A stretch of DNA of 64,000 nt from a virus. Shown one piece after another: positions 24,693 to 57,496 of this stretch. The position numbers and the translations under genes are program-made. The notes beneath the pieces are model-generated. The model was not told the origin of the DNA. It worked only from the letters and a program-made list of their open reading frames with translations, and did no database searches. The DNA lies in the IMG/VR virus record IMGVR_UViG_3300027770_000039, positions 32,001 through 96,000 of that record; one strand, given 5' to 3'. Each line of letters begins with the position of its first letter. Positions within the stretch are counted from its first letter, which is position 1.

Positions 24693-25445
24693 TTATTTCT
24701 CTTTTCTTGTGTAGTTTTTTCTTTTCCATATAAAATCTTTATAATATGAATATATTGATATTCTTCTTTTTTCTTCTTTGATTTTTTTTACCACTATGTC
24801 TTCTTTGGAGTAATCCAATGACATTTCCCAGTTTTCTCTTTTAAATGGAAAAACTTGAAATATAGGCGTTCCTTTTTTAATAGTTCCCATAAAATTTCTT
24901 TTTAGAAAAAATGCTGTAAATACTGGTGCGTTCCATTCATCGGAGTCTATAACTCCAGAAAGAGTGGTAAATGGAAGATCATGTCTATTGTGTGGGTGTG
25001 TAATTAAAATAGAATACCCTGGTGGAGTTTCGCAATGCCAAGGAATTTTCCAGCCATAATGCATTGGATGGTGTTCATGTGGAACTGCAACTTCTATCAT
25101 GTTTCTTTTATCTACTAGCATAAAATTATTTGTATTTTTAATAGAAGGAAACCCATTTTTATCTAAACTTACCTCAATATCATCTTCTAGGCAAAACATA
25201 TAACCTGCTGTTAAGGAATCAAAAAATGGCATACATAATTTAGTAGAGCCAGCGCTACCGTCTGTTCCTCTATCATTTACTGGAAACAACCTTAGCAAAT
25301 CATTTGAGGTTTGAAATCTGGAAAGCTTTTTATACCACTCTGGCAAATTATTTATGGCAGGAGAGGGTGCGTCATAGTCTTTTGGTTCAAAATTAAGATT
25401 AACCTCTGCTGGGGTGAATTTAATTATTAAATTATTATCACTCAT
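24693..25445 (-). CDS. DUF6065-like protein
   Basis: PEWYKK...KLCMPFFDSLTAGY...TPPGYS...GVIDSD...GTPIFQVFPFKRENW. Confidence 0.6.
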   Translation of the reverse strand: MSDNNLIIKFTPAEVNLNFEPKDYDAPSPAINNLPEWYKKLSRFQTSNDLLRLFPVNDRGTDGSAGSTKLCMPFFDSLTAGYMFCLEDDIEVSLDKNGFPSIKNTNNFMLVDKRNMIEVAVPHEHHPMHYGWKIPWHCETPPGYSILITHPHNRHDLPFTTLSGVIDSDEWNAPVFTAFFLKRNFMGTIKKGTPIFQVFPFKRENWEMSLDYSKEDIVVKKIKEEKRRISIYSYYKDFIWKRKNYTRKEK

Positions 25446-26145
25446 TAATAATTTTTTTAATAACCTTTTCTGTAGCTTTTATAGAAATATAAAATAGTGG
25501 AGTATTTCTCTCTATTAACCTTATTTGTTTTTCATTAGATAAAAAACAAAAATCTATAAAAGTTGGTTCCTTTATTATATCATTATTATTAGTTTTTTCA
25601 AAGGTCCCACTAGTCTCAATAATGCATATTACTGGGTCTTTTTTAATATTTTTTATACTATACTCTGCATCGCAATCAACAATCCATGGTACATATATCT
25701 TAAAAATTCTGTCCGAAACTTGTTTAAAATTATTTTTATTTAACAAGTCTTTAAAGCTTTCAATAGACAAAAATGATGGATAAAACTGCCTAACCATAGA
25801 TTTTTCAGATGCATAAAATATACTAGAAACCTGTTTATTGCTTGTTGGATGTCCTTGCCAAAGAATATCTGAATAATTCTTGTATATTAGATTTATCTCA
25901 TTTTTAGAAACTATCTCTATTTCTGGTTTGATTCCAAAATTATCTACATATAAATTTATTGGTTTTAAAACATTATTTTTATATTTTTTTAAAACTTGAT
26001 CCCAGGTTGCCCAATCATAAAAAACGTTGCATTCTTTTAAAATATCTTTAAAACTCATTGAAGACATCTCTAGCCAAGAATTAGATTCAAATGGTGCCCT
26101 TAATATGGGAAACGTTTTATTTATCGAAATATCTTTTTTGACCAC
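25438..26145 (-). CDS. Hypothetical protein, possibly a degenerate DUF6065-like member
   Basis: FKIYVPW and IERNTPLFYI echo the neighbouring paralogs; translationally coupled to them. Confidence 0.45.
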   Translation of the reverse strand: MVKKDISINKTFPILRAPFESNSWLEMSSMSFKDILKECNVFYDWATWDQVLKKYKNNVLKPINLYVDNFGIKPEIEIVSKNEINLIYKNYSDILWQGHPTSNKQVSSIFYASEKSMVRQFYPSFLSIESFKDLLNKNNFKQVSDRIFKIYVPWIVDCDAEYSIKNIKKDPVICIIETSGTFEKTNNNDIIKEPTFIDFCFLSNEKQIRLIERNTPLFYISIKATEKVIKKIINE

Positions 26146-26852
26146 ATTTTTTTCCTATAACCATTTCTAAAAACTGATCTAACCGAAAGTTGCTGGGCTC
26201 TAATTTGTGTATCAGAATCTTTTTCTTTATTAAGCGAGCTTTCCCAATCATCTCTCTTAAAAGGAATAATTTGAATAATTGGAGTGCCTTGTTCAATTAC
26301 TCCTTTAAATCCTTTTTCTACAAAAAAAGACAAATAACCATCAGAAGCGTATTTATCTGTGTCTATCAACCCTGGGATAGCTTGTAGAGGGCTTTTTTCT
26401 CCGTGCATTGGGTTTATAAACAAACAACTATACCCTGGCTCTGTTCTGGCAACCCACATTGGATGTATTCTTATAACTTGCTTATGAAAATTATTAGGAA
26501 TAGGGTATTCTTTTATTTGTTCAGATAAATGATGAGCTAATAAAAATTTTTGAAACTCTCTTGTATCATTTGGAATATCAATTTTTAAAATATCTCCTGT
26601 AGCATCTATGCTTAAATCCATAGGGCAAAGTAAGTAATATCCAAAAGTCATAGAATCAAAAACAGCTTGACATTTTTTTACTGTTAAAAGCATATTTCCG
26701 CTATGAACAGATGTATCATCATTTAAATAGCTTTTTTGTTTTTTCCACCACTCTGGAAGCAATGAAGATACCGATTGAGGATTTGGGAATATTTTTTCAA
26801 GTCCTCTATACTTTGGAAGAAATTCAATCTTTATCAAACTAATGGAATCCAT
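26121..26852 (-). CDS. DUF6065-like protein, paralog of 24693..25445
   Basis: PEWWKK...TVKKC...MTFGY...TEPGYS...GLIDTD...GTPIIQIIPFKRDDW. Confidence 0.6.
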   Translation of the reverse strand: MDSISLIKIEFLPKYRGLEKIFPNPQSVSSLLPEWWKKQKSYLNDDTSVHSGNMLLTVKKCQAVFDSMTFGYYLLCPMDLSIDATGDILKIDIPNDTREFQKFLLAHHLSEQIKEYPIPNNFHKQVIRIHPMWVARTEPGYSCLFINPMHGEKSPLQAIPGLIDTDKYASDGYLSFFVEKGFKGVIEQGTPIIQIIPFKRDDWESSLNKEKDSDTQIRAQQLSVRSVFRNGYRKKMWSKKIFR

Positions 26853-27394
26853 TTCTGATAGTATTGTCTGTGCAAATTTTGTAATGTAGATACAGAAAAA
26901 TATAAAAACATACTATCTTTATTTATTGTATCACAAAAATCTATTATATCTCCTTTATCAAATAGAATTAAGGTACCTTCTGGCGTATCTATTTCTTTTT
27001 CATTAATTATCATTTTATTGTTATTGCTTTTAATTACATATATCCCAGAAAAATTTAACCTTGTTCTATCTGGAGTTGTCACCAAAAAATTGTTGACAGA
27101 TTGATCTAGTAAATTTCCTAATAAATAGTAATAATTATTTTCAAAGTTTATTTTGTTTTTTTTGCACTCTTCTTTAATAATTTTAGATATTTCTAAATAT
27201 AATTTGTATATTTCTTTATGGTACATTCCAAAAAAATTAAAAGTTTTATAATCAATTAAAGAAATTTTTTTTGTTTTAATTTTTGTTCTGACTCCCCATT
27301 TTGCAGAACCTACTTCTTCATACATTGAGTCAATCATATCTTTATATTGTTTATATAAGAATTCGTTTCTAATGTTTTCTAGTTTTGTTATCAT
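26834..27394 (-). CDS. Degenerate paralog of the 24042..24692 oxygenase, lacking metal ligands
   Basis: Shares FNFF.MYHK.IYKLY.E.S.IIKE.C and the C-terminal KWIPL with 24042..24692, but has no HxH or distal His. Confidence 0.55.
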   Translation of the reverse strand: MITKLENIRNEFLYKQYKDMIDSMYEEVGSAKWGVRTKIKTKKISLIDYKTFNFFGMYHKEIYKLYLEISKIIKEECKKNKINFENNYYYLLGNLLDQSVNNFLVTTPDRTRLNFSGIYVIKSNNNKMIINEKEIDTPEGTLILFDKGDIIDFCDTINKDSMFLYFSVSTLQNLHRQYYQKWIPLV

Positions 27395-27399
27395 AATTT

Positions 27400-28041
27400 T
27401 TATTTCTCTAAAATTTCATTTGGGTTTTTTTCGTAAGGTCTGAGAGAATGCCAAGTTGCTGGTAAAATAGGATCTTTAAAGTGCTCTAAGTCTGGCTCTG
27501 TAATAATTTCTTTTGATTCTCCCAAAATTATATTTTCATTTTTTTTATTTTTTGATCTTTTAAACCTTAAAGCTAATATTAATTTAGCTGATTGTTTATG
27601 CATAGCAGATCCAGTTTTGCTTGCAGAAACACCTTGTCTAACTCTAACATTATACTTTGCCCACCAAACAGTATATCCCAATATGGCCAATGAAATATTT
27701 ATTTTTTTTCTTCTATAATAAGGCTGGCAGTAAACTCTATTTATCACAGCATCTTTACATTTTTTTATATTATCATTTTGTATGTTTGAAATGTCTATCC
27801 ATGAAGTAGGATATTCGTTATTTATAAAATTAGAAAATATTAATGTTCCAGAAGGATTTTTATCATTAAGGTAAAGGCATTCTATGCCTTTGTTTCCATT
27901 TACGTCTTGCATTAAAGTCCATTGAATCCAAGAACCTTTTATATACTTAGGGTATTTTCTAAATATTGGAAAAATAAAACCTTTTGTTGATTTTGCACCA
28001 ACAAATCCCATATTGTAAATATGCTTAACTAAATTAAGCAT
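27400..28041 (-). CDS. GNAT-like acyltransferase (weak)
   Basis: INRVYCQPYYRRKKI resembles GNAT motif A. Start re-called at 28041, just after the Hint gene stop. Confidence 0.45.
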   Translation of the reverse strand: MLNLVKHIYNMGFVGAKSTKGFIFPIFRKYPKYIKGSWIQWTLMQDVNGNKGIECLYLNDKNPSGTLIFSNFINNEYPTSWIDISNIQNDNIKKCKDAVINRVYCQPYYRRKKINISLAILGYTVWWAKYNVRVRQGVSASKTGSAMHKQSAKLILALRFKRSKNKKNENIILGESKEIITEPDLEHFKDPILPATWHSLRPYEKNPNEILEK

Positions 28042-28046
28042 GCTTA

Positions 28047-29363
28047 TTAGGCAGGGGTTGTAGGGTCGGTGTCTCCTGCTGTAGAGTCTTTCCATTGCTG
28101 GTAAAGTACCTCTAGAGATTCAGAAACGCTTTGGTTTGGCTCAGTAATAACGTTAGGTGATGTTATGTCTAGTCTAACTGAGTCGTGGACTAAAGAGTTG
28201 TCTGTAAAGAATACGTCATAAGGCTCTGTGTTAATAGTAATAACTAACTCTGGTCCCTCTGAAACTCTTAGCTCAATAATTGGCTGCCAATCATTGAATG
28301 TTGGAGAGTAGATTAAATCTGTTTCTACAATTTCATTAGCTGAAATAAATCTTGCTATTCCATCTCTTTTGGTTAGAACCCAGTGTGTATTTGTATATTT
28401 ATTTCCGTTAATTACATAAGTGGTCATTGCAATGTTTGCTGAAATAGACACCACTGTTGTTTCAATATCAGTATTAATTTGTGGGGCAGCAGATGACCAA
28501 GATTCAATAATTTCTTCTAGTCCTACTCCGTCCATTGGCAAATCATCAATTGCTGCTGAGTACAGAATATCTCCTGCAGAAACGTTGTGAGCTAACACAA
28601 GACCTTCAGGAACCTTTGAATGAATTAATGTATCTGCTCCAATTGATTTTCCTGGTGTAAAGCCGAACGGGGTGAAGCCGAACGGGGTGAAGCCGAACGG
28701 GGTGAAGCCGAACGGGGTAAAGCCGAACGGTGCAAAGCTGAATGGGGTTGTAGTAATATTTCCTGAATAATTAGACCATGCTCCATTTCCATTAGCATTT
28801 CTAGCCCGCACTCTAAAGTTCCAAACAAAGTCATTGTTTTGGCTTGCAAAATCTACGCTGTTTGTTCCAACTGCTACGGTCTTATTGTCGTCTCCGCCTC
28901 CACCATTATCTTCTAAATAATAATCAATAATTGCTGATCCACCGTCTGCTGGTGTTGACCAGGAAGCTCTATTGTTTTGTGCTCCATTGTTTGCTGCTGA
29001 CGGAGTTGAAATTGTATCAGGCACTGTTGTTGCAGTAATGCTATTAGACGCAGCAGATGCTGGCGAGTTTCCAACTGCATTTGTTGCTATAACTGTAAAT
29101 GTGTATGCTGTATTTGATTGTAGACCAGTTACAGACAGGGGAGATGATGCTCCTGACGCAGTGTATGATCCTGGAGAGGATGTTACTGTGTATGATGTGG
29201 CTGCAGGTGAGTCTTCTGGTAAAGAAAACGTTACATCAGCACGTCCATTATTGAATGCACGACCTGAACCTACATCTGTTGCGGCTACTGACGTTGGTGC
29301 TTTTGGCTCCAAAAAGTCATTTGATGCCTGTGCCTTTTTACCGAATTTCTTACCTGCTGCCAT
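28047..29363 (-). CDS. Fibronectin type III x2 + (FGFTP)5 repeat + Hint (intein-like) domain protein
   Basis: FN3 motifs (VTGLQSNTAYTFTVIATNAVG; WNFRVRARNANG). Hint blocks: SIGADTLI (A), TNTH (B), INTEPYDVFFTDNSLVHDS (F/G). Confidence 0.85.
   Translation of the reverse strand: MAAGKKFGKKAQASNDFLEPKAPTSVAATDVGSGRAFNNGRADVTFSLPEDSPAATSYTVTSSPGSYTASGASSPLSVTGLQSNTAYTFTVIATNAVGNSPASAASNSITATTVPDTISTPSAANNGAQNNRASWSTPADGGSAIIDYYLEDNGGGGDDNKTVAVGTNSVDFASQNNDFVWNFRVRARNANGNGAWSNYSGNITTTPFSFAPFGFTPFGFTPFGFTPFGFTPFGFTPGKSIGADTLIHSKVPEGLVLAHNVSAGDILYSAAIDDLPMDGVGLEEIIESWSSAAPQINTDIETTVVSISANIAMTTYVINGNKYTNTHWVLTKRDGIARFISANEIVETDLIYSPTFNDWQPIIELRVSEGPELVITINTEPYDVFFTDNSLVHDSVRLDITSPNVITEPNQSVSESLEVLYQQWKDSTAGDTDPTTPA
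28654..28748 (-). repeat. In-frame 15-bp tandem repeat encoding FSFAP(FGFTP)5
   Basis: Units of GGGGTGAAGCCGAAC with only synonymous variation among the FGFTP copies. Confidence 0.95.
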
Positions 29364-41268: not shown

Positions 41269-42018
41269 TTAAGAGGATTTAGACGCCTTAAACTCATTTT
41301 CAAATTGTTTACACATATTCGTAATTTCATCATACATTTCTGTAATTTCTAAAAAATTTTCTTTTTCTAAGTTTTCTTTAATTGTAAAAAACAATTTAGC
41401 CTTATTATAAATTTTAGGCTTTTCTTCTGGTACGGCATTAGTGTACCCTGGATGAGATAATGGGTGAACTCGTATTTCTTTTCTTGCTTTTTCTAAAAAT
41501 TTATCACAATCTTCATTAGAAAGAGAAAGATCTTTTCCTAACAGTGCTTTTGTGAAAAAATTAATATCTGACGTAACCTGGTCGAAAGTAAAGACATTAA
41601 GATTTTTAAAATTATCTAGTGTCGCTTTGGCATACCCTTTATATATCTGTATCTGGGCATATATGTGTTCGTCCATATTAAAGTCAGGGATTTCTGCTGC
41701 AATAACAACCCCGTTAGATACAGTATCTCCAGCTCCCCCATACGTTTTAGTAATTACTGAAGATATAACATCTTTAGGGTTTCTTACAACAGTAACCTGT
41801 TTTATTGTGTCATAAATTCCATACAATGACATGATGTTGTTAGATCTTGATACAAAGTTATTGTCAAAAGACGGGATAGGGCTAGTGTTAATTGTATTTA
41901 TATTAGAATCTAGAGGATTTCCTCCTCTACGGTTAATACTTTTTGCTAATAGGTATTGTGACCAAGTAGATCCACTTCTAGGCATAGAGTTAATTATTAT
42001 TTGATTGTATTTATACAT
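41269..42018 (-). CDS. Sulfotransferase-like protein
   Basis: 5'-PSB-like SMPRSGSTW and 3'-PB-like VRNPKDVISS. Confidence 0.7.
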   Translation of the reverse strand: MYKYNQIIINSMPRSGSTWSQYLLAKSINRRGGNPLDSNINTINTSPIPSFDNNFVSRSNNIMSLYGIYDTIKQVTVVRNPKDVISSVITKTYGGAGDTVSNGVVIAAEIPDFNMDEHIYAQIQIYKGYAKATLDNFKNLNVFTFDQVTSDINFFTKALLGKDLSLSNEDCDKFLEKARKEIRVHPLSHPGYTNAVPEEKPKIYNKAKLFFTIKENLEKENFLEITEMYDEITNMCKQFENEFKASKSS

Positions 42019-42742
42019 TATATCTCTTATATTCTCGGTCTAGTGAATCGTCGAAAAAGAGAGTGAATTTGGATATTTCATGTTCTCCTAATTTCTTGCC
42101 ACTTAGATCAATTCCTTTTCGATAAAGTCCAGTACCCCTACCAAGTTCTGTCTGACTATCTACATATGCATGTTGATCTTCAGGTGGAAAGTCCTCTAAC
42201 ATTCTTTCATTATATTTAACAGTAATTTTACTATTATTAAGTGCGGCGGCGGAAAAGGGCATAAATGCTGCTATTTGTGTATATGCAGGTATAGTTATTT
42301 TCTTATTAGGTTCGGTTAACCTCAAAGTAATTTCCCATGCACCTTTAAAAAAGGAGGTGGAAAGAAGTGTTGTATATACCTGAAATCCTTCATAGAACTT
42401 ATTAGGAATAGGATAGGCCAACATGCTAGTATTCTTATCTGTCTTAAATCTAAGTCCTGTAGATATAGCTAATGTGGCCCAACCTCTATGTTTATGTATC
42501 CAAGTATCTCCAGAATGTACTGTAATTCCATGATTTTCTTCTGAGTCATATGTCCCATCCCAGGTAAAGGAGATATCTTCTGGAAATGATATGCCATACC
42601 CCATCTGGTTAGCCAATGTCATAGGCATACATCTGTATACTGCATCAAATGGAAGATTATCCATCCAATCTCTCTGTACTGGAAGAGGAGAAATTATTCC
42701 AGATCCCCCGCCTTTTAATTTATAAACTTCAACCTCGTACAT
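42011..42742 (-). CDS. DUF6065 family protein
   Basis: RDWMD...YRCMPMTLANQMGY...FTWDG...GLRFKT. Confidence 0.7.
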   Translation of the reverse strand: MYEVEVYKLKGGGSGIISPLPVQRDWMDNLPFDAVYRCMPMTLANQMGYGISFPEDISFTWDGTYDSEENHGITVHSGDTWIHKHRGWATLAISTGLRFKTDKNTSMLAYPIPNKFYEGFQVYTTLLSTSFFKGAWEITLRLTEPNKKITIPAYTQIAAFMPFSAAALNNSKITVKYNERMLEDFPPEDQHAYVDSQTELGRGTGLYRKGIDLSGKKLGEHEISKFTLFFDDSLDREYKRYNV

Positions 42743-44024: not shown

Positions 44025-44318
44025 AATTAAATTATAGCATTATTAATTTTAAGATCTTAGATATATAATCTTAGTCGACTAGTATTTTAGATTTCATAAA
44101 ATGTTAATATATTTTTAATTTGTATGATACACCCCTGCGAGATGTCCGATATGCCCCATTAGTGCGACCATATGTGATGTAACTCATATGGTTTTAGCAA
44201 AGTTTTTTTTAATTTGTCCGACATGTCCGATTTGTGAGTGGCAAATTGTCAGTCCCCCCTGTTAGGATTATAGTATAAAGAAAGTAAGAAACTCTTACTA
44301 AAGAAAGGCGGTAATCTA

Positions 44319-44423
44319 ATGAACGATTATCTAGACTATATGGACGAAATCTACGAGGAACTCGTAGAGGAATTCGGACACGAAATTGAGTCCGTGTGTG
44401 AGCATAATCACACTAACGCCTAA
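44319..44423 (+). CDS. 34-aa highly acidic peptide, first gene of the rightward region
   Basis: MNDYLDYMDEIYEELVEEFGHEIESVCEHNHTNA; GAAAGGCGG RBS downstream of the 44246 promoter. Confidence 0.55.
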   Translation: MNDYLDYMDEIYEELVEEFGHEIESVCEHNHTNA

Positions 44424-44583
44424 CGGCGTGTCGCTTGATAATGTCAGTCTAATCTGATAGTCTTGCGACATACAAATTAAATAAAGAATTAGAGCGTGAG
44501 CCTAGCAAATAATCCGAAAGGTGAGCCTAGCAAATAACCGCTCAATAACCAACTAACAACTAACGAAAAGGATAGAAAATAAA

Positions 44584-45249
44584 ATGACAATAACATACTC
44601 AATATGGGACGGCGCTCAACTACTAGGCGTTGATTTCAAGGCTACTAGCGCCGATGAAATGAATAAGGTCGTAGCAGACCTACAAAAAGTTTCTAAAAAT
44701 GTTGTAGCACATATGCGAAAGGTGGAAATGTAATGATGACTAAATGGGATACTATTCAGGCAGATGTAAGCGATGCTTATGCTTATCTTGATGAAGAAGA
44801 AGCCTATAATAAGGCACTAGAAGAAGGCTTAGTAATAGGCTCTACCGAATATGACGAAGATGAATTATCTAAATCATTAACATTAGATTGGGAGGCATAC
44901 GAATAATGAACTTAGAATTGTTATTAGATAGCGAATACTTTTCGCTATACATTAACGGGCTTTGGCCTAATGGTGTCGGTATAGATATCCCGACATGGCT
45001 ACTAGTTGGCTCTATTGCTTTTGTTTATTCTATCGTATTACTTAGAAGAGATAAATGAAATCACAATTAGAGAAAGAAATCGAAATAAAAGAAAGTTTCG
45101 ACCAGATGTTAGATGATAGTTATCCCGATGTAAAAATCGGATACTCAACATTTACCGCCTCCGAAATACTTTTTAATTGCGACCCTATCGCTTACCAAAT
45201 GGGATTAGTAGAGCATGAAGATTATTTAGCAGAAATGGAAAATGAATAA
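44584..45249 (+). CDS. Run of four coupled small early ORFs (MTITYSIWDG..., MMTKWDTIQAD..., MNLELLLDSE..., MKSQLEKEIE...)
   Basis: Overlapping stop/start junctions with RBSs; only 45055..45249 appears in the ORF track. Confidence 0.55.
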
Positions 45250-45626
45250 TGGAAAACGGCGCAGATAAGTTAGCTAACCAATTTAAAAATTCGGTTGAGT
45301 TAGATCACCTAACCGAAATACAATTAAAAATGGTTGAAGAAATTTTACTAAATAAATTTGGTAAAAAAATAAAATAAATAACGGCGTGTCGGCTTGACAA
45401 AATCGGAAGCGCCCACAAAAGCTGTGGGGGCATTTTGTGATTTAAGACACACTATAAAAAAACCCCGAATCCTGCGGCGTGTCGATTTGACAGACAATTC
45501 GGACATTTAGGTGTGATTAACAACACACTGCTTGAGCGTCTCATTATTTGGAATTACTGGAAAGTAACATGAAATTGTCGGTGGCTTCCGCTATAATTGC
45601 GGTATAACGAAAGGAAGTGGCTAACA

Positions 45627-45827
45627 ATGGCTAACTTATACACAATAGAAAACTTGCTAATTGGCAAGACTTACAAATCAACAACTTTGCGTGGAGAAAT
45701 TATCTCAGCAGAGAAATCTCCTCACCCAATTTGGTATGGTGATAATACCGAAGCCTATTTGGTAGAAATTAACGCTGGAACTTTCCGCAATAAATTCCGC
45801 ACAATAGCGGTGAAAGTTGGTGAGTAA
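45627..45827 (+). CDS. Small early protein (MANLYTIENLL...)
   Basis: Start re-called after the AACGAAAGGAAG RBS, downstream of the 45575 promoter. Confidence 0.65.
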   Translation: MANLYTIENLLIGKTYKSTTLRGEIISAEKSPHPIWYGDNTEAYLVEINAGTFRNKFRTIAVKVGE

Positions 45828-46351
45828 TAATGGGATACATTGAAATTTTCACCATGAATTCTGAGGGTGCTGGGTGGCTTGACCTCTCAGATATTCCCGC
45901 CGAAACTTTATTAGAATTGGAAATCGGATTATTTCAGGAAGGTGCGCTCTAGGGCGTGTCTATCCCGAAATTGTCGGTGGCTTAGGCTATAATTACATTA
46001 ACAACAACGAAAGGAAAACTAAAGTGGGAAATATACTAGAAATACTTGCCGTATCTTGTGATGAGTGTGGCGGTGCTGGCTTCGTATTTTGGGGCGATGA
46101 AAACAATTACGATGTAGAGAGTTGCGATTGCGCTCTAGAAATGTGGGGTATCTAATGTATAGACTAGATACTTACTATGATGGCGAATTAGAATATACAC
46201 ACAAATTCGCTGACGCATTACAAGCATTTGAGGCTTTTGCAAAATGTTATGATGTCGGATTTGCTAAAGAATTCGCAACATATAATTTATCTTTGCCAAC
46301 GGGCAAAATGTATACTAAAAACTTTAATCGGATTGGATTGGTGTCGCAGAA

Positions 46352-46543
46352 ATGATGACCCGAAAAGATTATATTGCTACTGCTGAAATATTAAAATATA
46401 TTAGCAATAAAACTCACCCTGCTGTTTTTTCTAAAACCGTTCATGACTTTGCGGAGATGTTTGCAAAAGATAATGAGCGATTTGATGTAACAAAATTTCA
46501 TGAAGCGAGTGGGTATCGTGTTCCTAACTTCTCTTCAAAATAA
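46352..46543 (+). CDS. Small phage protein (MTRKDY...DNERFD..KF family)
   Basis: Recognisable small-phage-protein motif; coupled to the upstream ORF. Confidence 0.65.
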   Translation: MMTRKDYIATAEILKYISNKTHPAVFSKTVHDFAEMFAKDNERFDVTKFHEASGYRVPNFSSK

Positions 46544-46975
46544 AGTAAAACGAATTCAGGAATTGCGCCGTAGTAATGCGGCGCAACCTGTTCGCAATAA
46601 AAAAAAATACACACGCAAAATAAAACATAAAAAATCTGATCTAATTTAATTGTGGATAGCTAACAACGCGGTCGGGCGTGTCGCGCCCACAAGGGTGCGG
46701 GGTCGGGCGTGTCCTTAAGAGTGTGATTAAAAACACCCTGAAAGCTGGGGTGTTTTGTAATAAATGTCAGTCAACCCTGATATACTATCAACTCAAACAA
46801 CGAAAGGTCAACTCATGAATGATATTAACTCATGCTACTGTACTAACTATTCTATTTGCACAATTTGTGTAATGGGATATTACCGTGATGAAACATTCGA
46901 CTATATGGAAACACGTATGGCCGATGCGGAAATGGGGGATTTATAATGTCGGACCCAACTGTTATAATTACTCCC

Positions 46976-47695
46976 ATGAAATTAAAAAGATCTAATGATC
47001 GCAAAGTCGCTAACCTTGTTACAAAGAATGGCAAGCAAGCAGCAATTGCTAATACTTTTGGCCTGCCTGCAGGTAAGTCATACTCATGCCCTGGCGCAAC
47101 TACTATTTGTGAGACTGTTTGCTATGCGGGAAAATTAGAAAAACTTTATAAGGCTGTTAAGGCTAATCTGCTGCACAATTGGGAATTGTTACGCAATGCG
47201 GATAATGACACAATGGTGCGTTTATTGGATGAGATGATCATAGAATTTGTTGCCGATTGTGATAAGAAGAATGCGCCTAAGTTATTCCGTATCCACTGGG
47301 ATGGCGATTTTTTTAATGATACTTATACCTATGCCTGGAAGACTATTATCGAAAAGCATTCCGATATTCAATTTTGGGTGTACACGCGGGTAAAAGACGC
47401 AGCGCTTATTCTAAAAGATATATCTAATCTATCTTTATATTATTCTACGGATGATGATAATAAAGAGATCGGCCATGAACTAAAAGTAAATGAAGGAATT
47501 CGCCTTGCTTACTTAGGAAAGACTTTTGCGCTTACCGAAAGTACAATGAAAGAATTGACGGGTAAGCCTGGCGCTAAATGTCCTGAGAATATGAAAAGTA
47601 TTCCGCTTATCTCAAGCGCAGGCAGTGCGTGTGTATCATGCGGCTTATGTGTTTATGGTAAAGCAGATATTAGATTTAGTGCTAGTAAAAAATAA
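46976..47695 (+). CDS. Gp88-like Fe-S / radical-SAM-related phage protein
   Basis: FGLPAG..YSCPGA...C...CYA, FRIHWDGDF, FWVYT and a C-terminal CP...CxxCxxC. Leaderless ATG 7 nt after TATAAT (46963-46968). Confidence 0.75.
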   Translation: MKLKRSNDRKVANLVTKNGKQAAIANTFGLPAGKSYSCPGATTICETVCYAGKLEKLYKAVKANLLHNWELLRNADNDTMVRLLDEMIIEFVADCDKKNAPKLFRIHWDGDFFNDTYTYAWKTIIEKHSDIQFWVYTRVKDAALILKDISNLSLYYSTDDDNKEIGHELKVNEGIRLAYLGKTFALTESTMKELTGKPGAKCPENMKSIPLISSAGSACVSCGLCVYGKADIRFSASKK

Positions 47696-47989
47696 ACAGA
47701 AAAGGTATAATATACTATGGAATTAATTGGAGCGCTAATTGGATTCTTTTTTGTTTTGTTTTTAATTTTTCCCCCTTTAATTTTTTTATTTGTTTTATTA
47801 TATACAAAACCTGATATAGATAACAACGGGCTTAGCGGGGAACAATAGCGCCGAAGCTGCGCCCACAAGGGTACGGGGTCGGGCGTGTCGTTACGGGTGT
47901 GATGTAAAACACCCCGAAACCCTACAGATATGTAAAGAATTGTCGGTGTATTGTGGTAAAATACTCTTATCCAACAACGAAAGGCTCTA

Positions 47990-48753
47990 ATGAAAACACT
48001 AGAACACTCTCTTAGATTTATTACAGAGTTAGATGAAACTAATCCAACCGCACAACGATTACTAGCATTAGATACAACTACGCAGGCACTATTATTAGAA
48101 GCCATGCTACACAATTTACTTGTTCCTGATATTATGCCACTTATAGATAATCTAAACTCAGGCAATTCTTACGCAACACTAAAGGTTGTGAAATAATGTT
48201 AGCAACTGCCATCGGAATACTTGACGCAACCAAAGATAGTATTTTTGACGATGAAATTATGGGATTAGCAGGCGAACTCCATGAACGCAGAAATGAACTA
48301 TCAGATGAAACTTTTGCTAAGTATTTATTTATGTATTCCACAGCCCTATCTAGCAAAGTAGCCGACCTAGTAACTAAGGTCTGCCTAAGCAAAGAGGAAA
48401 TGTCGGTGCTATGCGCTACAATAGACGAAATGGACAACCTATCAGAAACTATACTAGAAGAGGATAAATAAATGGGAAGCATAACAGCACTAGGAATACA
48501 GGATACAGTTTTGGATTTAGAAACACAATTACTCTATCACTTAAAGGGTAATCATTACCCTCCCGTTCCAGCTGAAATGGTAAAGCCTTGTATAGATGCC
48601 ATTGACGCATACTACGATAATGATTTTGATCGAGAGATAGATATGCCTAAAGTAAATGATTTTCAGATTACCTATAAGGGAAGCCTTACCGCACCAGCGT
48701 GGGCTATCGTAGAGCAACACCACCTAGAGTTTTGGCTGCCTGAATGTGATTAA
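47990..48753 (+). CDS. Three coupled small early ORFs (47990..48196, 48196..48471, 48472..48753)
   Basis: RBS and promoter upstream; the last ORF has the HL.GNHYPPVP...IVEQHHL motif seen in phage early genes. Confidence 0.65.
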
Positions 48754-48847
48754 CCTCACACAATAACTTTCTCAAATAATGAGATGCGGATACTAAATGT
48801 CGGTGGTGTCCGCTATAATACTACTAACAACAAACGAAAGGAAACAA

Positions 48848-49003
48848 ATGACCAACTCAACACTAGAGGTCGGACAGACCTACACAACTACAACCAGTAA
48901 TGTTGTAGGTATTATCAAAGCAATAGACAACCACCCAAGCGGTGTAAGTCGTATCTTGCTTGATGTAAATGGCAAAGAGCGTTGGACAAGTCTAACTAAC
49001 TAA
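48848..49003 (+). CDS. Small early protein (MTNSTLEVGQ...)
   Basis: Start re-called after AACGAAAGGAAA. Confidence 0.6.
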   Translation: MTNSTLEVGQTYTTTTSNVVGIIKAIDNHPSGVSRILLDVNGKERWTSLTN

Positions 49004-49071
49004 GCGTAAGGCGGATACCGCTTGTCGGTGGTATCCGCTATAATAAACCCACCTAACGAAAGGAAACACAA

Positions 49072-49494
49072 ATGGCAAGAGGCAAAGCAATACAGGTAAA
49101 AATACCTACTGCTAAGGTTATCAAAGCCTTAGAAACAAGATTAGCCAAACTAGAGGCTGATTACACAAAGCAAGATGAAAATGAAGCAAAGTTCCAAAAG
49201 AAATTGGAAGCATGGAAAAAAGATATTGGGAAGTGGGCTATTGCTAATTTCTCAAAGGCGCAAGACCTACGCACCAACTATCGCCAATGGAACAAAACTC
49301 TCAATGTTGATTTTGATATTGTAGTAAGCGAAAAGGATTTTCCTGCTGAACCAGTAAAGGACTACGAGCAAATCCATCAGCACTCTTATCGTGAGATGAA
49401 AGACGAAATGGAAAATGCTATCCGTATTCTTAAAATGACCGATGAGGAAACAGTTAGCGCAAGCACCTATAACGCTATTGCTCGTTATCTCTAA
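49072..49494 (+). CDS. Hypothetical coiled-coil early protein
   Basis: Own promoter and RBS; 140 aa. Confidence 0.7.
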   Translation: MARGKAIQVKIPTAKVIKALETRLAKLEADYTKQDENEAKFQKKLEAWKKDIGKWAIANFSKAQDLRTNYRQWNKTLNVDFDIVVSEKDFPAEPVKDYEQIHQHSYREMKDEMENAIRILKMTDEETVSASTYNAIARYL

Positions 49495-49566
49495 ATAACA
49501 GATGGGGGCTAGACAAAATCTAGCCCCCTATGTTATACTTTTTATCCCTACTAACAAAGGAACAAA

Positions 49567-49779
49567 ATGCGATATAGATTAGAAATCTATGATGCTAATA
49601 AATCTCACGACATTTCCATACCACTTGCTGAAAGTATCAACTATCCAAAAATTGCTAACATAGTTAAGCAAAATATAAAAAACTTTCAGGGTGATGTAAA
49701 AGCATATGTATTTGATGTAACTAATAATAAAAAGATCACAGCGGCGTATTTCCCAGAAGAAATTCATTCACTAATCTAA
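49567..49779 (+). CDS. Hypothetical protein
   Basis: TAGACA-18-TATACT promoter and AAAGGA RBS. Confidence 0.6.
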   Translation: MRYRLEIYDANKSHDISIPLAESINYPKIANIVKQNIKNFQGDVKAYVFDVTNNKKITAAYFPEEIHSLI

Positions 49780-49955
49780 AGCTTGGGGCGGGTTTTTATG
49801 TTTTCCCGCCCCATCTTCCCATGCGCCCAACCTTGGGGACTTATCCACAGCCTTACGGAAATCTGTGGAAAACCCCTGAAACCTGATGTAAAATAAGATA
49901 GACAATGTCAGTGCCAACTGTTATAATAAACCTAACAAACAAACGAAAGGATAAA

Positions 49956-50963
49956 ATGGCTCATAATCTAGAAGTGCAAGATGGTGAAGTAGCATTTGCG
50001 TTACGTGGCGCACCTGCTTGGCACAATCTTGCAAATCGCATTTTCGCTCAAGATGAAAATGTAACTACCGCAACAATGCTTGAAGAAGCAAAGTTAAATA
50101 ACTGGAATGTTCGCTTGTCGGACGTTGCAGATCACATCCCTAACACATGGAGAAATACATCAGATAATTTCTATGTGATTCGTGATAACCCATTTGATCA
50201 AGGCACTGATGTTCTATCAGTTGTTGGAAAGCGATACAAGACTGTTCAGAATGAAGAGTTATTTCAATTCGCCGACAACGTTTTAGACAATGGCGATGCA
50301 AAATGGGAATCTGCTGGCTCAATTAAAAAGGGCAAAGTTGTATTCGGCTCATTGGATATTCCTCGTGAAATCGTATTAGACCCACAAGGTGTTAACGATA
50401 GAACTAAGTTATATTTAATCGTATGGACATCACACGACGGCTCAGTTGCCGTTCAAGCAGCAATCACACCTGTTCGTGTTGTCTGCCAAAATACTCTTAA
50501 CCTTGCAATGAAGGGCGCTAAGCAATCTTTCAAGATTCGCCACACACAAACTGCTGAAGGCAGAATTGTGCAAGCCCGTCAAGCATTGGGATTAACATTT
50601 GCGTATGCAGATGAATTTCAAAAGCAAGCACAAGAGTTATTTACTCAATCAGTTACCGATAAGCAATTCTCGGATTTGATTCGCAATCTATACCCAAAGC
50701 CTGAGTCAGATGTTAAAGGCGCATTGAAGAAGTGGGAGAATAAGGTTGTTCTAATTGATGACCTTTATCATAACTCACCAACTAATTCTACAATCAAGGG
50801 AACTGCTTGGGGTGCATTTAATGCACTAACTGAGCGTTTAGATTATTACCGCACATCACGCACTGGTAATACTGAATCGCTAAATGCTGGCGCAAGTGGG
50901 TTCGACCCAATTTTAACTGCAGAGAAAAATAAAATTCTCAAAGCAGTTAAAGCCTTAGCCTAA
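49956..50963 (+). CDS. DUF932 family (phage/plasmid-like) protein
   Basis: PAWH.L, VVGKRYKTVQN, SHDGS, TPVRVVCQNTL, IRHT and TAWGAFNA.TE..D; start re-called at MAHNLEV. Confidence 0.85.
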   Translation: MAHNLEVQDGEVAFALRGAPAWHNLANRIFAQDENVTTATMLEEAKLNNWNVRLSDVADHIPNTWRNTSDNFYVIRDNPFDQGTDVLSVVGKRYKTVQNEELFQFADNVLDNGDAKWESAGSIKKGKVVFGSLDIPREIVLDPQGVNDRTKLYLIVWTSHDGSVAVQAAITPVRVVCQNTLNLAMKGAKQSFKIRHTQTAEGRIVQARQALGLTFAYADEFQKQAQELFTQSVTDKQFSDLIRNLYPKPESDVKGALKKWENKVVLIDDLYHNSPTNSTIKGTAWGAFNALTERLDYYRTSRTGNTESLNAGASGFDPILTAEKNKILKAVKALA

Positions 50964-50969
50964 ATAAAT

Positions 50970-50994
50970 GGGGCCCGAAAGGGCCCCGTTTCTT
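50970..50994 (+). terminator. Hairpin GGGGCCC-GAAA-GGGCCCC
   Basis: Perfect GC stem with a GNRA loop followed by GTTTCTT. Confidence 0.7.
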
Positions 50995-51068
50995 GGTCCA
51001 TTAGCTCAGCTGGTTAGAGCGCTACCCTGTCACGGTAGAGGCCGACGGTTCAAGTCCGTTATGGATCG
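50995..51068 (+). tRNA. tRNA-Asp(GTC)
   Basis: Acceptor GGTCCAT/ATGGATC, anticodon arm CTACC-CTGTCAC-GGTAG, GGTTCAAGTCC T arm, G discriminator. Confidence 0.93.
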
Positions 51069-51072
51069 CAAA

Positions 51073-51146
51073 GTGCCATTAGCTTAGTTGGTTAAAGCCC
51101 CGAACTCATAATTCGGTAATCGTAGGTTCAAGTCCTACATGGCACA
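51073..51146 (+). tRNA. tRNA with CAT anticodon (elongator Met or Ile2)
   Basis: Acceptor GTGCCAT/ATGGCAC, anticodon arm CCGAA-CTCATAA-TTCGG; lacks the initiator GGG/CCC stem. Confidence 0.9.
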
Positions 51147-51269
51147 CAAGCTGCGCCCAACCTTAGAGGCTCGATCAACGCTTTACGGGTGTTATATAAA
51201 ATCCCCCAAAACCTATTGCAAATGTCAGTAGCCTCTGCTACAATTACGACATTCAACGAAAGGAATAAT

Positions 51270-52043
51270 ATGCCAAATTGGGTATATAACACATTAACGA
51301 TACAAGGTCCAAAGTCTGAAATTGATTCTATTAAGGATAGACTTAATAAGCCGTTTACTTTAGCACAAGAGAATCATGGTATGGGAGATATTACTCCTAA
51401 TGGTTTCCCCACCAAAATTAAAGAGGTTACTTATAGTAATCCTGTTTTTGCTTTCTTTAATATCCACTCATATAAAGATGAAGGTATTACTGATGAAGAG
51501 TATGCCTGCCAGCCTGACCGTTCAGGTCTTGACTTAAATGACCCTGATTGGTTCCGCAAATCTGTTGAGTTTGCTAAGACTCAGAAAGATTGGTATTCAT
51601 GGAATCAATCTAACTGGGGAACTAAATGGGATGTAGCCGTATCAGATGATGACAAATATCCTGAAACCGAATTGCTTGAACACAAGTCTGAAGGTGATGA
51701 TAACTGGCTTCTATATAAATACGAGACTGCTTGGTCACCTGCTGTAACTATCTTAACTAAACTATCTAATCTTGTTCCGAACTCCCTTCTCACATTAGAG
51801 TTTGAGGAAGAGACAGGCTGGGGTGGGGAATATGAGATTGTTCGTGGCGAAGTAAAAGAATTGGCAGAATGGGATAACCGTTGCTATGCTTGCCAATCTT
51901 ATGACACATTAAGTTATTGTGAAAATGACTGTGGCGAATTCTGTTCATCTTGTAATCAAGGCTCATGGCAGGATGCAGAGGCAATGGAAAAATGTCAGAC
52001 CCACATGGTACTATTAACCACTACCGAAACGAAAGGAAACTAA
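51270..52043 (+). CDS. DUF1281/YubB ferredoxin-like family protein
   Basis: MPNWVYNTLTI...DWYSWNQSNWGTKWD...ETAWSP with a C-terminal Cys cluster. Confidence 0.8.
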   Translation: MPNWVYNTLTIQGPKSEIDSIKDRLNKPFTLAQENHGMGDITPNGFPTKIKEVTYSNPVFAFFNIHSYKDEGITDEEYACQPDRSGLDLNDPDWFRKSVEFAKTQKDWYSWNQSNWGTKWDVAVSDDDKYPETELLEHKSEGDDNWLLYKYETAWSPAVTILTKLSNLVPNSLLTLEFEEETGWGGEYEIVRGEVKELAEWDNRCYACQSYDTLSYCENDCGEFCSSCNQGSWQDAEAMEKCQTHMVLLTTTETKGN

Positions 52044-52044
52044 C

Positions 52045-53491
52045 ATGGAAGACACATACGGAGCAACAGTAACACCTGCTGTACCTGCTACATACAATCC
52101 TAGTGCACTTGTGCAATACAAGTTTATTGAAGGAGAAAATGTAACATATCCAATTGCTAAAGTTACAGACTTAGAATGGGACCTAGAACAAGGTCGACGT
52201 TCTCGTGATAACTTTAACGAACTTAAAGGTACAGTTAATGAATTAGAAGAACTTCTAGTTGAACTGTATAATCCTAATTATACAAAAGAAGAAGCGCTGC
52301 AACAAATTGCAGAACTATTTGGATTTGAACTATCAAAGACAGTTACCATAACTGGAACTATTAACTTTGAAGTAATAATGCAAGTACCACTTGATGAGGT
52401 TGAAGATTTTGATGCTCATTACAAACTTGGCGATGAACTTTCTTTAACATCTTACAATGGCGATGTTGAAGTTAATGATTGGTCAATCGAAAGCACAGAT
52501 GTGGATTGGAACTAATGTACTTTGAACTTACCGCACCCGATAGGCTGTCAATGGAGATGGCCTATTGGGATGCACAAATAATCGGACTAGACCCAACTGC
52601 AATGTCACCGTTGACTTTCAATGTTGGAACTGGTAGTATTGAGAAAGTAAGTAAGATTCGTGACAAGTATAATTTAACTGAAAGTTATACCTCAGACTAC
52701 GAACCTACTGGATACACTAGGAGATAATATGTCAGATTACAAAGATGGTTTTGACGACGGGTATAAATTTGCTCGTGAAGAGATTATCGAAAAGCTATCA
52801 GAGATTGATATTAATGATATTGATTCCTGGATTTTAGATCGTCTAGCAGAAATGATGGAAGGTAATCAACTGTGATGGCTGAAGATGTATCCCCAGTTTA
52901 TTATTGCGATAGCTGCAGCGTAGCCCGTGCATCATATCTAATTAAACTATTAGATGGTGAACTGGCATTTTGCACACATCATTATAATAAATCTAAAAAG
53001 GCCCTTGACGAAAAGGCCTATGAAGTGGTAGAATTAAATAAAACGGAAGAGTCACCTAAACTAAAAGAAATGGCGGAATAGCAATGGGAGATAGAGCAAA
53101 CTTTGGATTCGTTCAACCGAACGGACAAACAATTGTATTATACGGTCACTGGGCAGGACATCAAATGCTAGGTAAATTAGCGGACGCTGTCATTGCTGCG
53201 AGACCACGCTGGAATGATTCATCATATGCAACACGTATCGCTATTAGCAATATCATTGCTGATCAGTGGAATATGGAAACTGGATGGGGCCTATACGTAA
53301 ATGAGATTGGCGACAATGAACATAAGATTGCCATCATTGATTGGGACCAGCAAACATTCAGTCTTCATGAGCATACGGATGCACGAGATCCTTTAAACAA
53401 AGTCCGTGGCATGAATAACAAAGCGCTCTTCACAATGGACCTAACTTCATTCTGTGAGAAGTATGCATTGGAAAGATTACTAGTAGTTTAA
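52045..53491 (+). CDS. Operon of hypothetical early ORFs (52045..52515, 52515..52727, about 52729..52874, 52872..53081 Zn-finger, 53084..53491)
   Basis: Coupled ORFs with RBSs; acidic composition. Confidence 0.6.
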
Positions 53492-53503
53492 ATTTAGAAG
53501 AAC

Positions 53504-53610
53504 GAATGGTGCATCTCCTTTAGATGCTAAGTAAGGCAGGCTTTCCTTTCGTTGAGGTCCTAGCAGCCATTCATCCTAAACCCCTATGACCCTTCTGGCA
53601 TGGGGGTTTA
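53504..53610 (+). ncRNA. Candidate anti-RBS small RNA (three-way junction plus terminal hairpin)
   Basis: GAATGG/CCATTC closing stem; GCATCT-CCTTT-AGATGC hairpin; a second stem-loop exposing TTTCCTTTCGTTG; 3' hairpin TAAACCCCTATG/CATGGGGGTTTA. Confidence 0.55.
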
Positions 53611-53782
53611 GCTTTGCGCTCACGGGTGAGGGTAGCATATGCTCTTTACGGAAGTCAAATTTATTTTCCTGAAATCCTAGCATATGGACAAAGCTGGGCT
53701 CATGTGGTGTGAATCACACGGATATAGCCTATACAATGTCAGTGGTATGTTATATAATTAAGGTCCTAGCGAAAGGAAATAT

Positions 53783-55011
53783 ATGTCATTCTTGGAGAAT
53801 GAAAACCAAATGGTGATAGACGCAGAATATTCTTATATTGGAGAACAACTGGTCGAAGACTGGACTAACTCTAATTTAGATGAAGGTCAACTATTTGCAG
53901 ATTTTAGATTTGCTGAAATGTGTGAGAGTAATTATCTAAAGGGTAGATTTAATCAGTTTTATGATTTAAAACCCGAAGACCAATACTATGTAGAATGGGA
54001 TGAGGAAGCATAATGTTAGGTTATACATATAAAGATATACAAGCATTTGGTAATAGTCTTACTTGGGCTATTGATACCGCCAAATCTCAGGGTGAAGAAC
54101 AACAGTATAAACAATTATTAATTGTATGGGATTTTTTTGAAGGTCTACTAGCAGAAGGGTATATAGATGAGAACACATACTACGGATAAGTTAATAGAAT
54201 ATATGAATATTCATTTAATTAGTCTTAATCAAGACTTAGATAAGGATTTGAATGTTGAATCTAAGATAAATATCCAAGGACAAATTATGGCTATAGAACA
54301 TCTATTGGAGGTATATAATGAGTTATAAGGATACTCTATTGGAACCCCGCCTTCAAAAACTGGTGGACCTGGGGGAATCAGGCACTGACATTCTGCACGG
54401 GGAATTAAAGAACCTTATGCTGGAAGCAGAGACTCAGCTTGATTATGCTACCAAAGCTGAGGAAGAATCAGAGGAAGCAATGGACTCTATGGAAAGAAGG
54501 TATTGGGAAGGCCAACTAGAGGCATTGACAGAATGCTATATATTGACGTATAATTTAACCTTCGCCATAAATGAAAGGATTATATCCCGTGGATGACATT
54601 CAGTATGACAGAGGACAAAAAATTAAAATGCAGTTGGACCAAATGGTCAATACTTTAAATGGCATGGATGTTTCATTGTCACTAGTATGGCTTTGGACAT
54701 GGGATTTAATTAGAGATAAATATGATCAATACTCTAAGGACGATCTTTATAGCGATTTAACAATTACTGATGGGACAACCCTTGATACTATCTGGGATAA
54801 ATTATGGTCTCAGGTTCCCGCCTCATTTACTCTGGAGTATGGCGCAGAGTACATAGATGAGGCTATAACAGACTGGATGTTAGACAACGGCTTCCTTACT
54901 GTGCTAGATGATGACGGCTGGCTGAATGACGATGAAGACATAGTAGATCTAACTGCAGAGGAAGAGACAGCAATGATTGAAGGATTAGTTAATCTAAACG
55001 AGATCCCATAA
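53783..55011 (+). CDS. Operon of very acidic hypothetical ORFs (53783..54013, 54318..54596, about 54589..55011 and two small unlisted ORFs)
   Basis: Downstream of the 53736 promoter; D/E-rich. Confidence 0.6.
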
Positions 55012-55137
55012 ACTTGTGGGCAAGGGGGCATAGCATAGTTTTTACGAGGCTATATACAAATCCCCCAATTTATGATAAAATATAAGAAAAGCTTTCTGAT
55101 CTTCAAGGCGGAGCTCAGATTTATCGAAAGGCAACAA

Positions 55138-55284
55138 ATGACAACAAAACGTGAATATCTAAAAAGCAAGGGCATTACAGTTGGTCGCCGTGGTCGCTTC
55201 TCAGGAGCTGCCAAGGTTGTGTTAGCGGAAGCTGACAAGAACGGTATGAAGTTTACAGCCGAAGTCCCAACAAAGACTAAGTAA
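55138..55284 (+). CDS. Lsr2-like DNA-binding-domain-only protein
   Basis: REYLKSKGITVGRRGRFS matches the Lsr2 C-terminal AT-hook (R.W....G..V..RGR); start after CGAAAGG. Confidence 0.65.
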   Translation: MTTKREYLKSKGITVGRRGRFSGAAKVVLAEADKNGMKFTAEVPTKTK

Positions 55285-55367
55285 ACAAACTAACATTGGG
55301 AGGGGTTGAGAGAACGTGCTCTTGACCTTTCCCAACCTTTTTGATAAAATCTTAATGAGAGGCGGAC

Positions 55368-55637
55368 ATGGGTAAAAGAACAGACGAAGATAAAATAGCA
55401 GAACAGTTACAAGAAGTTCTAGACAATCATTGGTTCAACCCTTCTATATGTGCCAGTGTAATTGTAAATAGATTTCCATTATATACGCAAGACAGATTAA
55501 TGGATTTAATGAAAGAAATTATTAAAGAGCAGGCTTCTAAGTTCCGACCTTATTGGGAGGAAGGAGTAACTTCCGAAGCAATTATGCTAGCAAGTCATCT
55601 TGCTGAGGTTATAGAAATGCATGAGCCCCTGGCATGA
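55368..55637 (+). CDS. Hypothetical protein
   Basis: TTGACC...TAAAAT promoter and GAGGCGG RBS. Confidence 0.6.
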   Translation: MGKRTDEDKIAEQLQEVLDNHWFNPSICASVIVNRFPLYTQDRLMDLMKEIIKEQASKFRPYWEEGVTSEAIMLASHLAEVIEMHEPLA

Positions 55638-56995
55638 CCGAAAAAGTCAAAGCTGGCAAGGATCGAAAGAAAGCTAATCATTCTTTAAGGACATTCCGTA
55701 AATGGAAGAAAAATGAGGCGGCTAAGAAACAAGCAGAAATAGATAGATACAATAATCTATGTGGTCCAGTAACCATAACATATATAAGTAAATAAACATA
55801 CATCTGGGATATATGCCTGATATGTACCATTGGTACACATTGGGTTATATGTCCCATTTGTTGTATATAGCTAAGGGCAGAATGTTGTCTTTACGATAAG
55901 GTATAAAAAATCCTGGAAAATATCTCAGAATATATAATAAATGTATATTAATTTAAAGAAACATATATAGAATATAACAAAATATATATAAAATATGGCA
56001 GAATATGTGGGCAAAATTTCCACTTTACGAGACATGTTTAAATATCCTGGAACACATTTATATAACATATATATAACATATGGCCCAAAGCTCTTGACAA
56101 TATGGGTAATATATGCCATGTGGGGCAATGTGGAGCATTACGGGGCTAAGTGGGGATCGCTCAATTACATGTATATCTATCTAAGTATATATTGATAACA
56201 TTTACGTTATAATTAATAGCATTTACTTTGATAGATCTCTGATGAATATGGCTCTAAAAGGTCATATAAGGCTATTAGAGAGGGTATAAAGTTCGGGGGG
56301 ATATAGGAATTAGGAGCATATTTTAGCCAATTAGAATGGAGCTTCTCCAGTATCTTTGGCTATACGTAATTGCTCTCTACCCCATGCATGGAATATGTCT
56401 ATCTGATTCTGGGTATATAAGCACATCTGACATAGTGAATATACTAGATCGCCTTTGGTATATAGGAAGAGTTCTTTATCTATATAACATACATTGCATT
56501 CCATGGCTTCCCCGCTTTTTATTTATCTGATCTAAATAGCTCGATTACTCCACCTATGATAGCAATGGCTGATATACCTAACATTAGATAGATCCAATAT
56601 ACGTATAGAATAGCCATTATTTACAATTCATACAGTAATATGGAGCACGTAGGTGATCTATACCGACATATCCTGATTTAGCACATTTGTAACATGTAGC
56701 TTTAACTATATTAGGATCTCCAAAATCTACCCATTTGATCCGTGTATCTCTGGTGTAAAATACCTTAGTTGCATACCATGTAATGGCTATTAGTAGTAGT
56801 TCTATCATTGTTCCCGCCTTTCAACAATTATGAGTGCATCCACAATCTGGACACTCTCCCCCTGGAGCAGCATTACAATCATCGCACCAGTCTGGTGGAT
56901 TTTGCTTATATCCTGGTATCTTTATTTCAGTCATATAATATATTATACTATATCTATATTATTTTAGTCAACTACTTTATATGTACTAAATATTG

Positions 56996-57066
56996 CTTCA
57001 GGTGTAGGAATCGGACCTACATTATCAGTTTCGGAAACTGCTCTACGACCATTATAGGAACCTGAA
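56996..57066 (-). tRNA. tRNA-Arg(CCG), atypical
   Basis: Acceptor TTCAGGT/ACCTGAA; D stem CTAT/GTAG; anticodon loop TTCCGAA; T arm GTAGG-TCCGATT-CCTAC (TCC instead of TTC). Confidence 0.65.
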
Positions 57067-57496
57067 ATTATTTAGTTTCCTATGATGATAATCCTTTAAA
57101 TGAGTGACATTCACATACGCCTACTACATCATATTTCTTTTCATCAACTTTAGCTATATCGCTATATTTAGCTTTACTCTGACAGTAATGACACTTCTCT
57201 GTCTCTTCCGTTTTTTCCAGAAATATCTCAAAATTATCTAATATGCCCATAGTAACCATTATAGCATAATATGGTCAACGTAGTTGACTGAAAACTATCT
57301 ACTTTTCGCCGCACTTTTAATCGTGGAATATAGATCATTATTCTTTTATAATTGATCTATCTATTCTTCGTATCTCGTATGAGCATACAGGGCATTCACC
57401 TATTACTAAATAATTTTTAGACTCTAGCTGAGTTATTGCGTTGACTTGGCCAGAGACTACCTTTTTACAATATTTGCAGTAAGCCTTGGTTATAAT

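Follow-up and report, generated by a model that had tools for sequence, protein, structure and literature searches.

Which activator reads a promoter-like motif that recurs, always in the same orientation, along a single block of small genes in a phage genome? The question is raised by a stretch of 64,000 nucleotides (the window), bases 32001-96000 of IMG/VR virus record IMGVR_UViG_3300027770_000039, in which the motif WTGTCRGW-N9-TAnnnT is repeated between 44 and 54 kb. The original prediction, made from these letters, took the motif for the RecA-NDp promoter of mycobacteria, which is recognised by the DNA-damage activator PafBC, and proposed that the phage has co-opted this host response or relies on a phage-encoded WYL-domain mimic of the activator. 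We found that the motif marks a promoter class of its own, that it is conserved in every related phage examined, and that its letters, its spacing and the degenerate R position are those of the RecA-NDp consensus. On balance, host PafBC is its most probable reader.

A one-strand promoter class in a block of small genes

The motif matched 14 times in the window, in all cases on the plus strand between 44246 and 53758 (chance expectation 0.40; largest count in a shuffled sequence 2; Table 1). A scan of the whole 110,973-bp genome returned the same 14 sites in the forward direction, none in reverse and none for a backwards control. The same-strand clustering described in the original prediction was thus confirmed with 14 copies instead of 13, and its example site, at 45575, reads as it had been written. 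Almost all genes of the phage lie on the minus strand, the plus-strand exceptions being the block at 44.2-55.6 kb and a small group at 38.4-41.2 kb. The strand of the structural genes carries zero sites in the whole-genome scan, in agreement with the earlier remark that no such motif precedes them. The site at 48400 is embedded in a coding sequence, as had been stated, and lies 50 nt upstream of the next gene; a second embedded site, at 51992, had not been mentioned before.

The core of the sites comprises TGTCRG, 10 nt and TAnnnT. The -10 hexamer has the form TAnAAT and is usually TG-extended (G at -14 in 13 of the 14 sites), while TGTCRG, at about -26, takes the place of a -35 box. Genes begin 25-50 nt from their site, except for the GP88-family gene behind the site at 46946. 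This gene had been described as leaderless and probably is, since its in-frame ATG lies 7 nt past TATAAT and its Pfam GP88 match begins at exactly that residue. Most sites are followed 15-30 nt downstream by a shared ribosome site and then a start codon, and the ribosome site ACGAAAGG occurs nine times after a promoter on the plus strand, compared with one occurrence expected. Terminator-like hairpins reach twice their frequency in shuffled sequence, and several stand directly upstream of promoters. This arrangement of sites, downstream ribosome sites and start codons, and upstream hairpins marks the sites as promoters of short transcription units. The sites share no -35 consensus: positions -6 to -1 are nearly information-free, and canonical sigma-70-type matches number 67, against 76 expected. 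Canonical -35 promoters are found outside the class (TTGACT-18-TATAAT at 56971-56942 on the minus strand; TTGACA-18-TATAAT at 54525 on the plus strand), so the promoters of the block form a separate class. On sequence grounds, all 14 are genuine promoters belonging to a single, special class.

Further elements were observed near these promoters. TGTCCGA, which closely resembles the -26 element but has C at position 5, occurs in three copies clustered at 44143-44230, in the divergent region directly upstream of promoter 1 (window total 7; 2.4 expected). On the minus strand at 56900-57260 there are two small Cys-rich (zinc-ribbon-like) genes that start 7 nt past TATAAT and so probably lack a leader; of the two, the gene near 56,930 is preceded by the canonical TTGACT -35, a promoter class different from that of the plus-strand block. 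In the stretch 53495-53625, which is free of open reading frames, the ribosome site common to nine early genes is present in reverse complement (CCTTTCGTT), and a strong terminator hairpin comes after it. The stretch could encode a small RNA directed against the ribosome site, with a fold z-score of only -1.9.

Table 1. Positions, in the window, of the plus-strand block, its promoters and associated features
Feature	Position	Strand	Details
Main plus-strand block	44246..55637	+	about 30 small genes and 2 tRNAs; presumed early region
Promoter 1	44246..44268	+	TTGTCAGTC-N8-TAGGAT; next gene 44319-44423
Promoter 2	44441..44463	+	next genes from 44584
Promoter 3	45575..45597	+	TTGTCGGTG-N8-TATAAT; gene 45627-45827
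Promoter 4	45971..45993	+	gene 46024-46155
Promoter 5	46764..46786	+	gene 46815-46946
Promoter 6	46946..46968	+	GP88 gene, probably leaderless; ATG 46976, 7 nt past -10
GP88-family gene (PF17338)	46976..47695	+	53% identical to mycobacteriophage D29 gp88
Promoter 7	47940..47962	+	gene 47990-48196
Promoter 8	48400..48422	+	in 3' end of open reading frame 48196-48471; gene 48472-48753
Promoter 9	48797..48819	+	gene 48848-49003
Promoter 10	49022..49044	+	gene 49072-49494
Promoter 11	49905..49927	+	DUF932 gene 49956-50963, then tRNA-Asp and tRNA-Met (50995-51147)
Promoter 12	51222..51244	+	gene 51270-52043
Promoter 13	51992..52014	+	in 3' end of gene 51270-52043; gene 52045-52515
Promoter 14	53736..53758	+	gene 53783-54013
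CRP/GlxR-like boxes	44173, 44397, 45436, 45512, 48745, 53703 (span 44173..53718)		palindrome match

Conservation of the promoters and of CRP/GlxR-like boxes

We searched IMG/VR with the DUF932 protein of the block, which gave 177 relatives, of which 80 were fetched and examined. Each of the 80 carries 6-20 copies of the motif, on the gene strand save for a handful of cases, and summed over the loci of these relatives (1.3 Mb) there are 1087 plus-strand sites versus 7 on the minus strand. The scan of the full genome and of relatives that the original prediction had suggested thus yielded 14 sites in this genome and the motif in every relative examined. Five complete relatives (112-120 kb) have 14-19 sites each, on one strand and nearly all within one block of 10-13 kb. 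The family logo reads AAW-TGTC-A/G(84/16)-G-T-S-S ... T-G-n-TAtAAT. A core-free scan, which required only the -10 and a downstream ribosome site, returned 486 cores without mismatch; another 25 had one, which in 18 cases fell on the last G. T, G, T and C of the core are essentially invariant in the family. The spacing is strict: N10 gives the 14 sites here and 6-20 per relative, whereas N11 gives scattered matches only, almost all on the opposite strand. When viral sequences were scanned for one variant of the motif, TTGTCAGTGGC-N6-TAnnnT, multi-site loci were found only in phages with early genes homologous to this block, and high-GC viral contigs had single matches only.

Boxes matching TGTGA-N6-TCACA with at most one mismatch accompany the promoters. 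Six were found in the window, all within the block, compared with two expected for the whole window; they stand upstream of five of the 14 promoters, and for five of the six the distance to a predicted start site downstream is 54.5-94.5 bp. The relatives contain 729 boxes versus 15 for the reversed control, and a box is present within 130 bp upstream in about half of the unique promoter contexts of the family (466 of 843). The distances of box centres from the predicted start show a periodicity of about 10 bp, with maxima at 54.5, 64.5, 74.5, 84.5 and 94.5 and a separate peak near 69.5. This pattern looks like class I activation by a host protein of the CRP/GlxR type, and no CRP-type helix-turn-helix (HTH_Crp_2) was found in the phage genome.

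An actinophage of apparently lytic lifestyle

The record has terminal repeats, a GC content of 35% and three tRNA genes. It contains the genes of a tailed phage, including a 2090-aa tape measure, portal, protease and tail fibres, together with genes for ribonucleotide reductase, DnaE, RecA, a PD-(D/E)XK nuclease and catalase. The phage encodes a WhiB-like protein, its GP88 resembles gp88 of mycobacteriophage D29 (Table 1) and has homologues also in Streptomyces phages, and its portal is 58% identical to those of Stanwilliamsviridae Streptomyces phages. On the basis of these homologies, the phage is an actinophage. A mycobacterial host, as the original prediction had implied, was not borne out: the GC content is 35%, the relatives are uncultured metagenomic phages, and nothing marks a mycobacteriophage. 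Searching genome contigs with the phage WhiB produced two matches only, both on apparently misbinned contigs. Neither a tyrosine nor a serine integrase was found in the phage, which therefore looks lytic, and a reading in terms of prophage induction was dropped on the same ground.

The phage RecA is full-length (RecA and RecA_C domains; L094:13557-14561 in genome coordinates, minus strand), and no PafBC-type promoter stands before its gene. It has more than 6000 related database proteins, the best 120 of which are 85-99% identical, indicating that the phage family is abundant. The catalase (426 aa; Pfam Catalase, E 1e-86) is encoded on the minus strand at L096:1073-2353, that is, genome 95073-96353; in the window its gene occupies the positions from 63073 on and extends beyond the window's end. 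Such an enzyme is unusual for a phage, and some freshwater actinobacteria require external catalase for growth. Finally, a long same-strand cassette at window positions 20678-29363 comprises 2OG-oxygenase-like, DUF6065-like and other tailoring-type genes behind a Hint-domain protein, and DUF6065 and sulfotransferase matches occur near it, at 41269-42742.

The same promoter precedes cellular recA genes

PafBC is present in almost every actinobacterial species, and the in vivo consensus of its promoters, obtained by chromatin immunoprecipitation, is tGTCgg(N10)tA(N3)T (PMC8635444). The 5' part of these promoters spans -23 to -28; the -26 element stands in for a -35, and its GTC triplet is recognised by PafB (PMC8635444). 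Activation requires single-stranded DNA on the WYL domains (PMC11804915), and the RecA-NDp motif reaches other Actinobacteria (PMC8223512). The claim that the phage element is the RecA-NDp consensus withstood comparison, the two being equal in letters, R degeneracy and spacing.

We scanned metagenome contigs for the promoter pattern together with a RecA N-terminal motif at a suitable distance, and found at least 120 metagenomic recA loci that carry a PafBC-type promoter, most of them GC-rich. Two loci of 44% GC, L142 and L128, have ATGTCAGT...TATCTT 32 nt upstream of recA, an SOS box (TCGAAC-N4-GTTCGA) just upstream, and the neighbourhood ftsK-pgsA-cinA-HTH-DUF3046-recA-recX, a gene order that we took to be the actinobacterial arrangement. 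Positions left free by the search pattern were then compared between 55 unique cellular promoters and the phage family sites. Position 7 is T or A in 82% of the cellular promoters and 93% of the phage sites, while G or C occupies position 8 in 86% and 91%, position 9 in 84% and 92%, and position 10 in 74% and 66%, respectively. Both preferences run counter to background composition, with G/C at positions 8-10 in a phage of 35% GC and A/T at position 7 in mostly GC-rich cells, which argues for one shared reader. In three other metagenomic recA loci of about 50% GC (L172, L160 and L097), the recA promoter is preceded at about 750 bp by a second PafBC-type site, TGTCAGAGCCAAC...TAGATT, which probably serves another damage-response gene.

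The phage promoters resemble the PafBC (RecA-NDp) promoters of Mycobacterium and other Actinobacteria in having TGTCRG at -26 with an invariant GTC, a spacing of exactly 10 nt, TAnnnT, no -35 consensus and the same preferences at positions 7-10 as cellular recA promoters. They differ in that 14 tandem copies head small genes instead of repair genes, the -10 is AT-rich (TAtAAT) and mostly TG-extended, A is favoured over G at position 5, and about half of the family sites have a phased CRP-like box; their dependence on PafBC is predicted.

Proposed mechanism and alternatives

In the most likely mechanism, which we hold with moderate confidence, host sigma A polymerase would be redirected by host PafBC through sigma adaptation, with optional CRP input. 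The housekeeping RNA polymerase (sigma A) of the host would read the -10, and the host PafBC heterodimer, activated by single-stranded DNA, would lodge between the DNA and sigma domain 4, reading the GTC of the -26 element. Sigma adaptation of this kind has been demonstrated at mycobacterial recA (PMC8635444, PMC11804915). Single-stranded DNA from phage DNA entry, replication or host damage would then fire or boost the plus-strand block, and about half of the family promoters would receive a further host signal through the helically phased CRP/GlxR-like box. We infer that PafBC is probably the reader, single-stranded DNA probably the trigger, and the block probably early. Co-option of the host damage response, the core of the original prediction, is thus probable. 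What was observed directly is the promoter sites as a class, their conservation and consensus identity, the marks of an actinophage in the genome, and a promoter of this type in front of cellular recA genes. The phage-encoded WYL mimic offered as its alternative found no support. Searches of the genome for WYL, Sigma70_r2, Sigma70_r4_2, HTH_Crp_2 and HTH_11 gave no matches; the check for phage WYL genes that had been recommended thus found none, and a phage sigma factor for the motif, which the original prediction had named as a possible refutation, is not indicated by any Sigma70_r2 or Sigma70_r4_2 match.

Some points weigh against PafBC as the reader. The reading presupposes a host with pafBC. 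The activator depends on single-stranded DNA, little of which may be available when infection starts, and the G at -14 of an extended -10, present in 80% of family sites, may permit activity without any activator. The family favours TGTCAG (84%), as against tGTCgg in the M. smegmatis consensus. The motif is not enriched in Coruscant and BillNye, two phages of Streptomyces whose structural genes are related, so the trait is specific to this phage lineage. Most early proteins are without a recognisable family, which leaves room for a novel phage-encoded reader.

Such a reader could be a phage activator of no known family that recognises the -26 element and brings in the RNA polymerase of the host in the style of T4 MotA/AsiA, in which case the likeness to PafBC would be convergence or geometry mimicry. 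This explanation, which we think rather unlikely, gains from the motif being missing in the two Streptomyces phages, from the many block proteins (most of them) that lack a Pfam family, and from the canonical -35 promoters described above, which could express the factor first. However, the first promoters of the block already have the element; its letters, R degeneracy, exact N10 and position 7-10 preferences all match cellular recA promoters; and searches for HTH, WYL and sigma domains gave nothing. Among about 27 early or neighbouring proteins scanned, many of them without any family, there was no match to an HTH family or to a MotA/AsiA-type activator. We give lower credence to a model in which sigma A holoenzyme alone reads the sites as extended -10 promoters and TGTCRG is an operator for another host protein or for a late-acting phage repressor. 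Extended -10 promoters function without a -35 in mycobacteria, and mycobacteriophage L5 has asymmetric repressor sites in one orientation that contain TGTCAAG; in the present family G occupies -14 at the frequencies given above and T occupies -15 in 64% of sites. Yet TGTCRG is better conserved than the extended -10 and is kept in the roughly one fifth of family sites that lack TG, it keeps an invariant distance from the -10 and, unlike stoperators, is never found apart from one; integrase and repressor-type HTH were not found either. A third possibility, that the sites act as DNA or RNA hairpins (CRG-N6-CYG) like the hairpin promoters of N4, was rejected and retains a negligible probability. 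Position 5 (R) pairs with position 14 (Y) in 11 of the 14 sites of this genome, but the pairing vanishes in 644 unique family sites, where G at position 5 is accompanied at position 14 by T (60), G (30) or C (20) and position 13 is C in only 44%.

Returning to PafBC as the reader, we also considered a tentative extension, possible but doubtful as a whole. Two host sensors would ignite the phage programme, with infection-made single-stranded DNA arming PafBC and cyclic AMP-CRP reporting the energy state of the host, and the 14 copies per replicating genome would titrate PafBC and so starve the host's repair and defence regulon.

Relation to known systems and implications

The proposed design shares features with several phage systems. 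In the middle promoters of T4, too, the -35 gives way to an upstream box (the MotA box at -30) that keeps a fixed distance to the -10 and is read by a protein bridging to sigma domain 4; the T4 readers are phage-encoded, whereas no phage reader was found here and the box equals the site of a host activator. In the host-takeover module of SPO1, many small genes are packed closely together, every one of them with a strong promoter and a ribosome site to itself, and its early promoters are ordinary host sigma A promoters. The present block has the same compact layout of small genes but uses a stress-activator promoter class. SOS (LexA)-coupled phage promoters likewise tie phage expression to a host DNA-damage signal, but the switch proposed here would work by activation instead of derepression, independently of LexA, and in a lytic-looking phage, hence not as prophage induction.

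We found no publication describing phage promoters of this type in the literature searched, and the only role known so far for PafBC promoters is that of a DNA-damage switch belonging to the host itself. If the proposed mechanism is true, widespread uncultured actinobacterial phages would time their genes by the single-stranded-DNA alarm of the host, not by factors of their own. Sensing of infection or host stress by a lytic phage through this route would be new, and the sites would also provide a simple, portable set of natural PafBC-responsive promoters.

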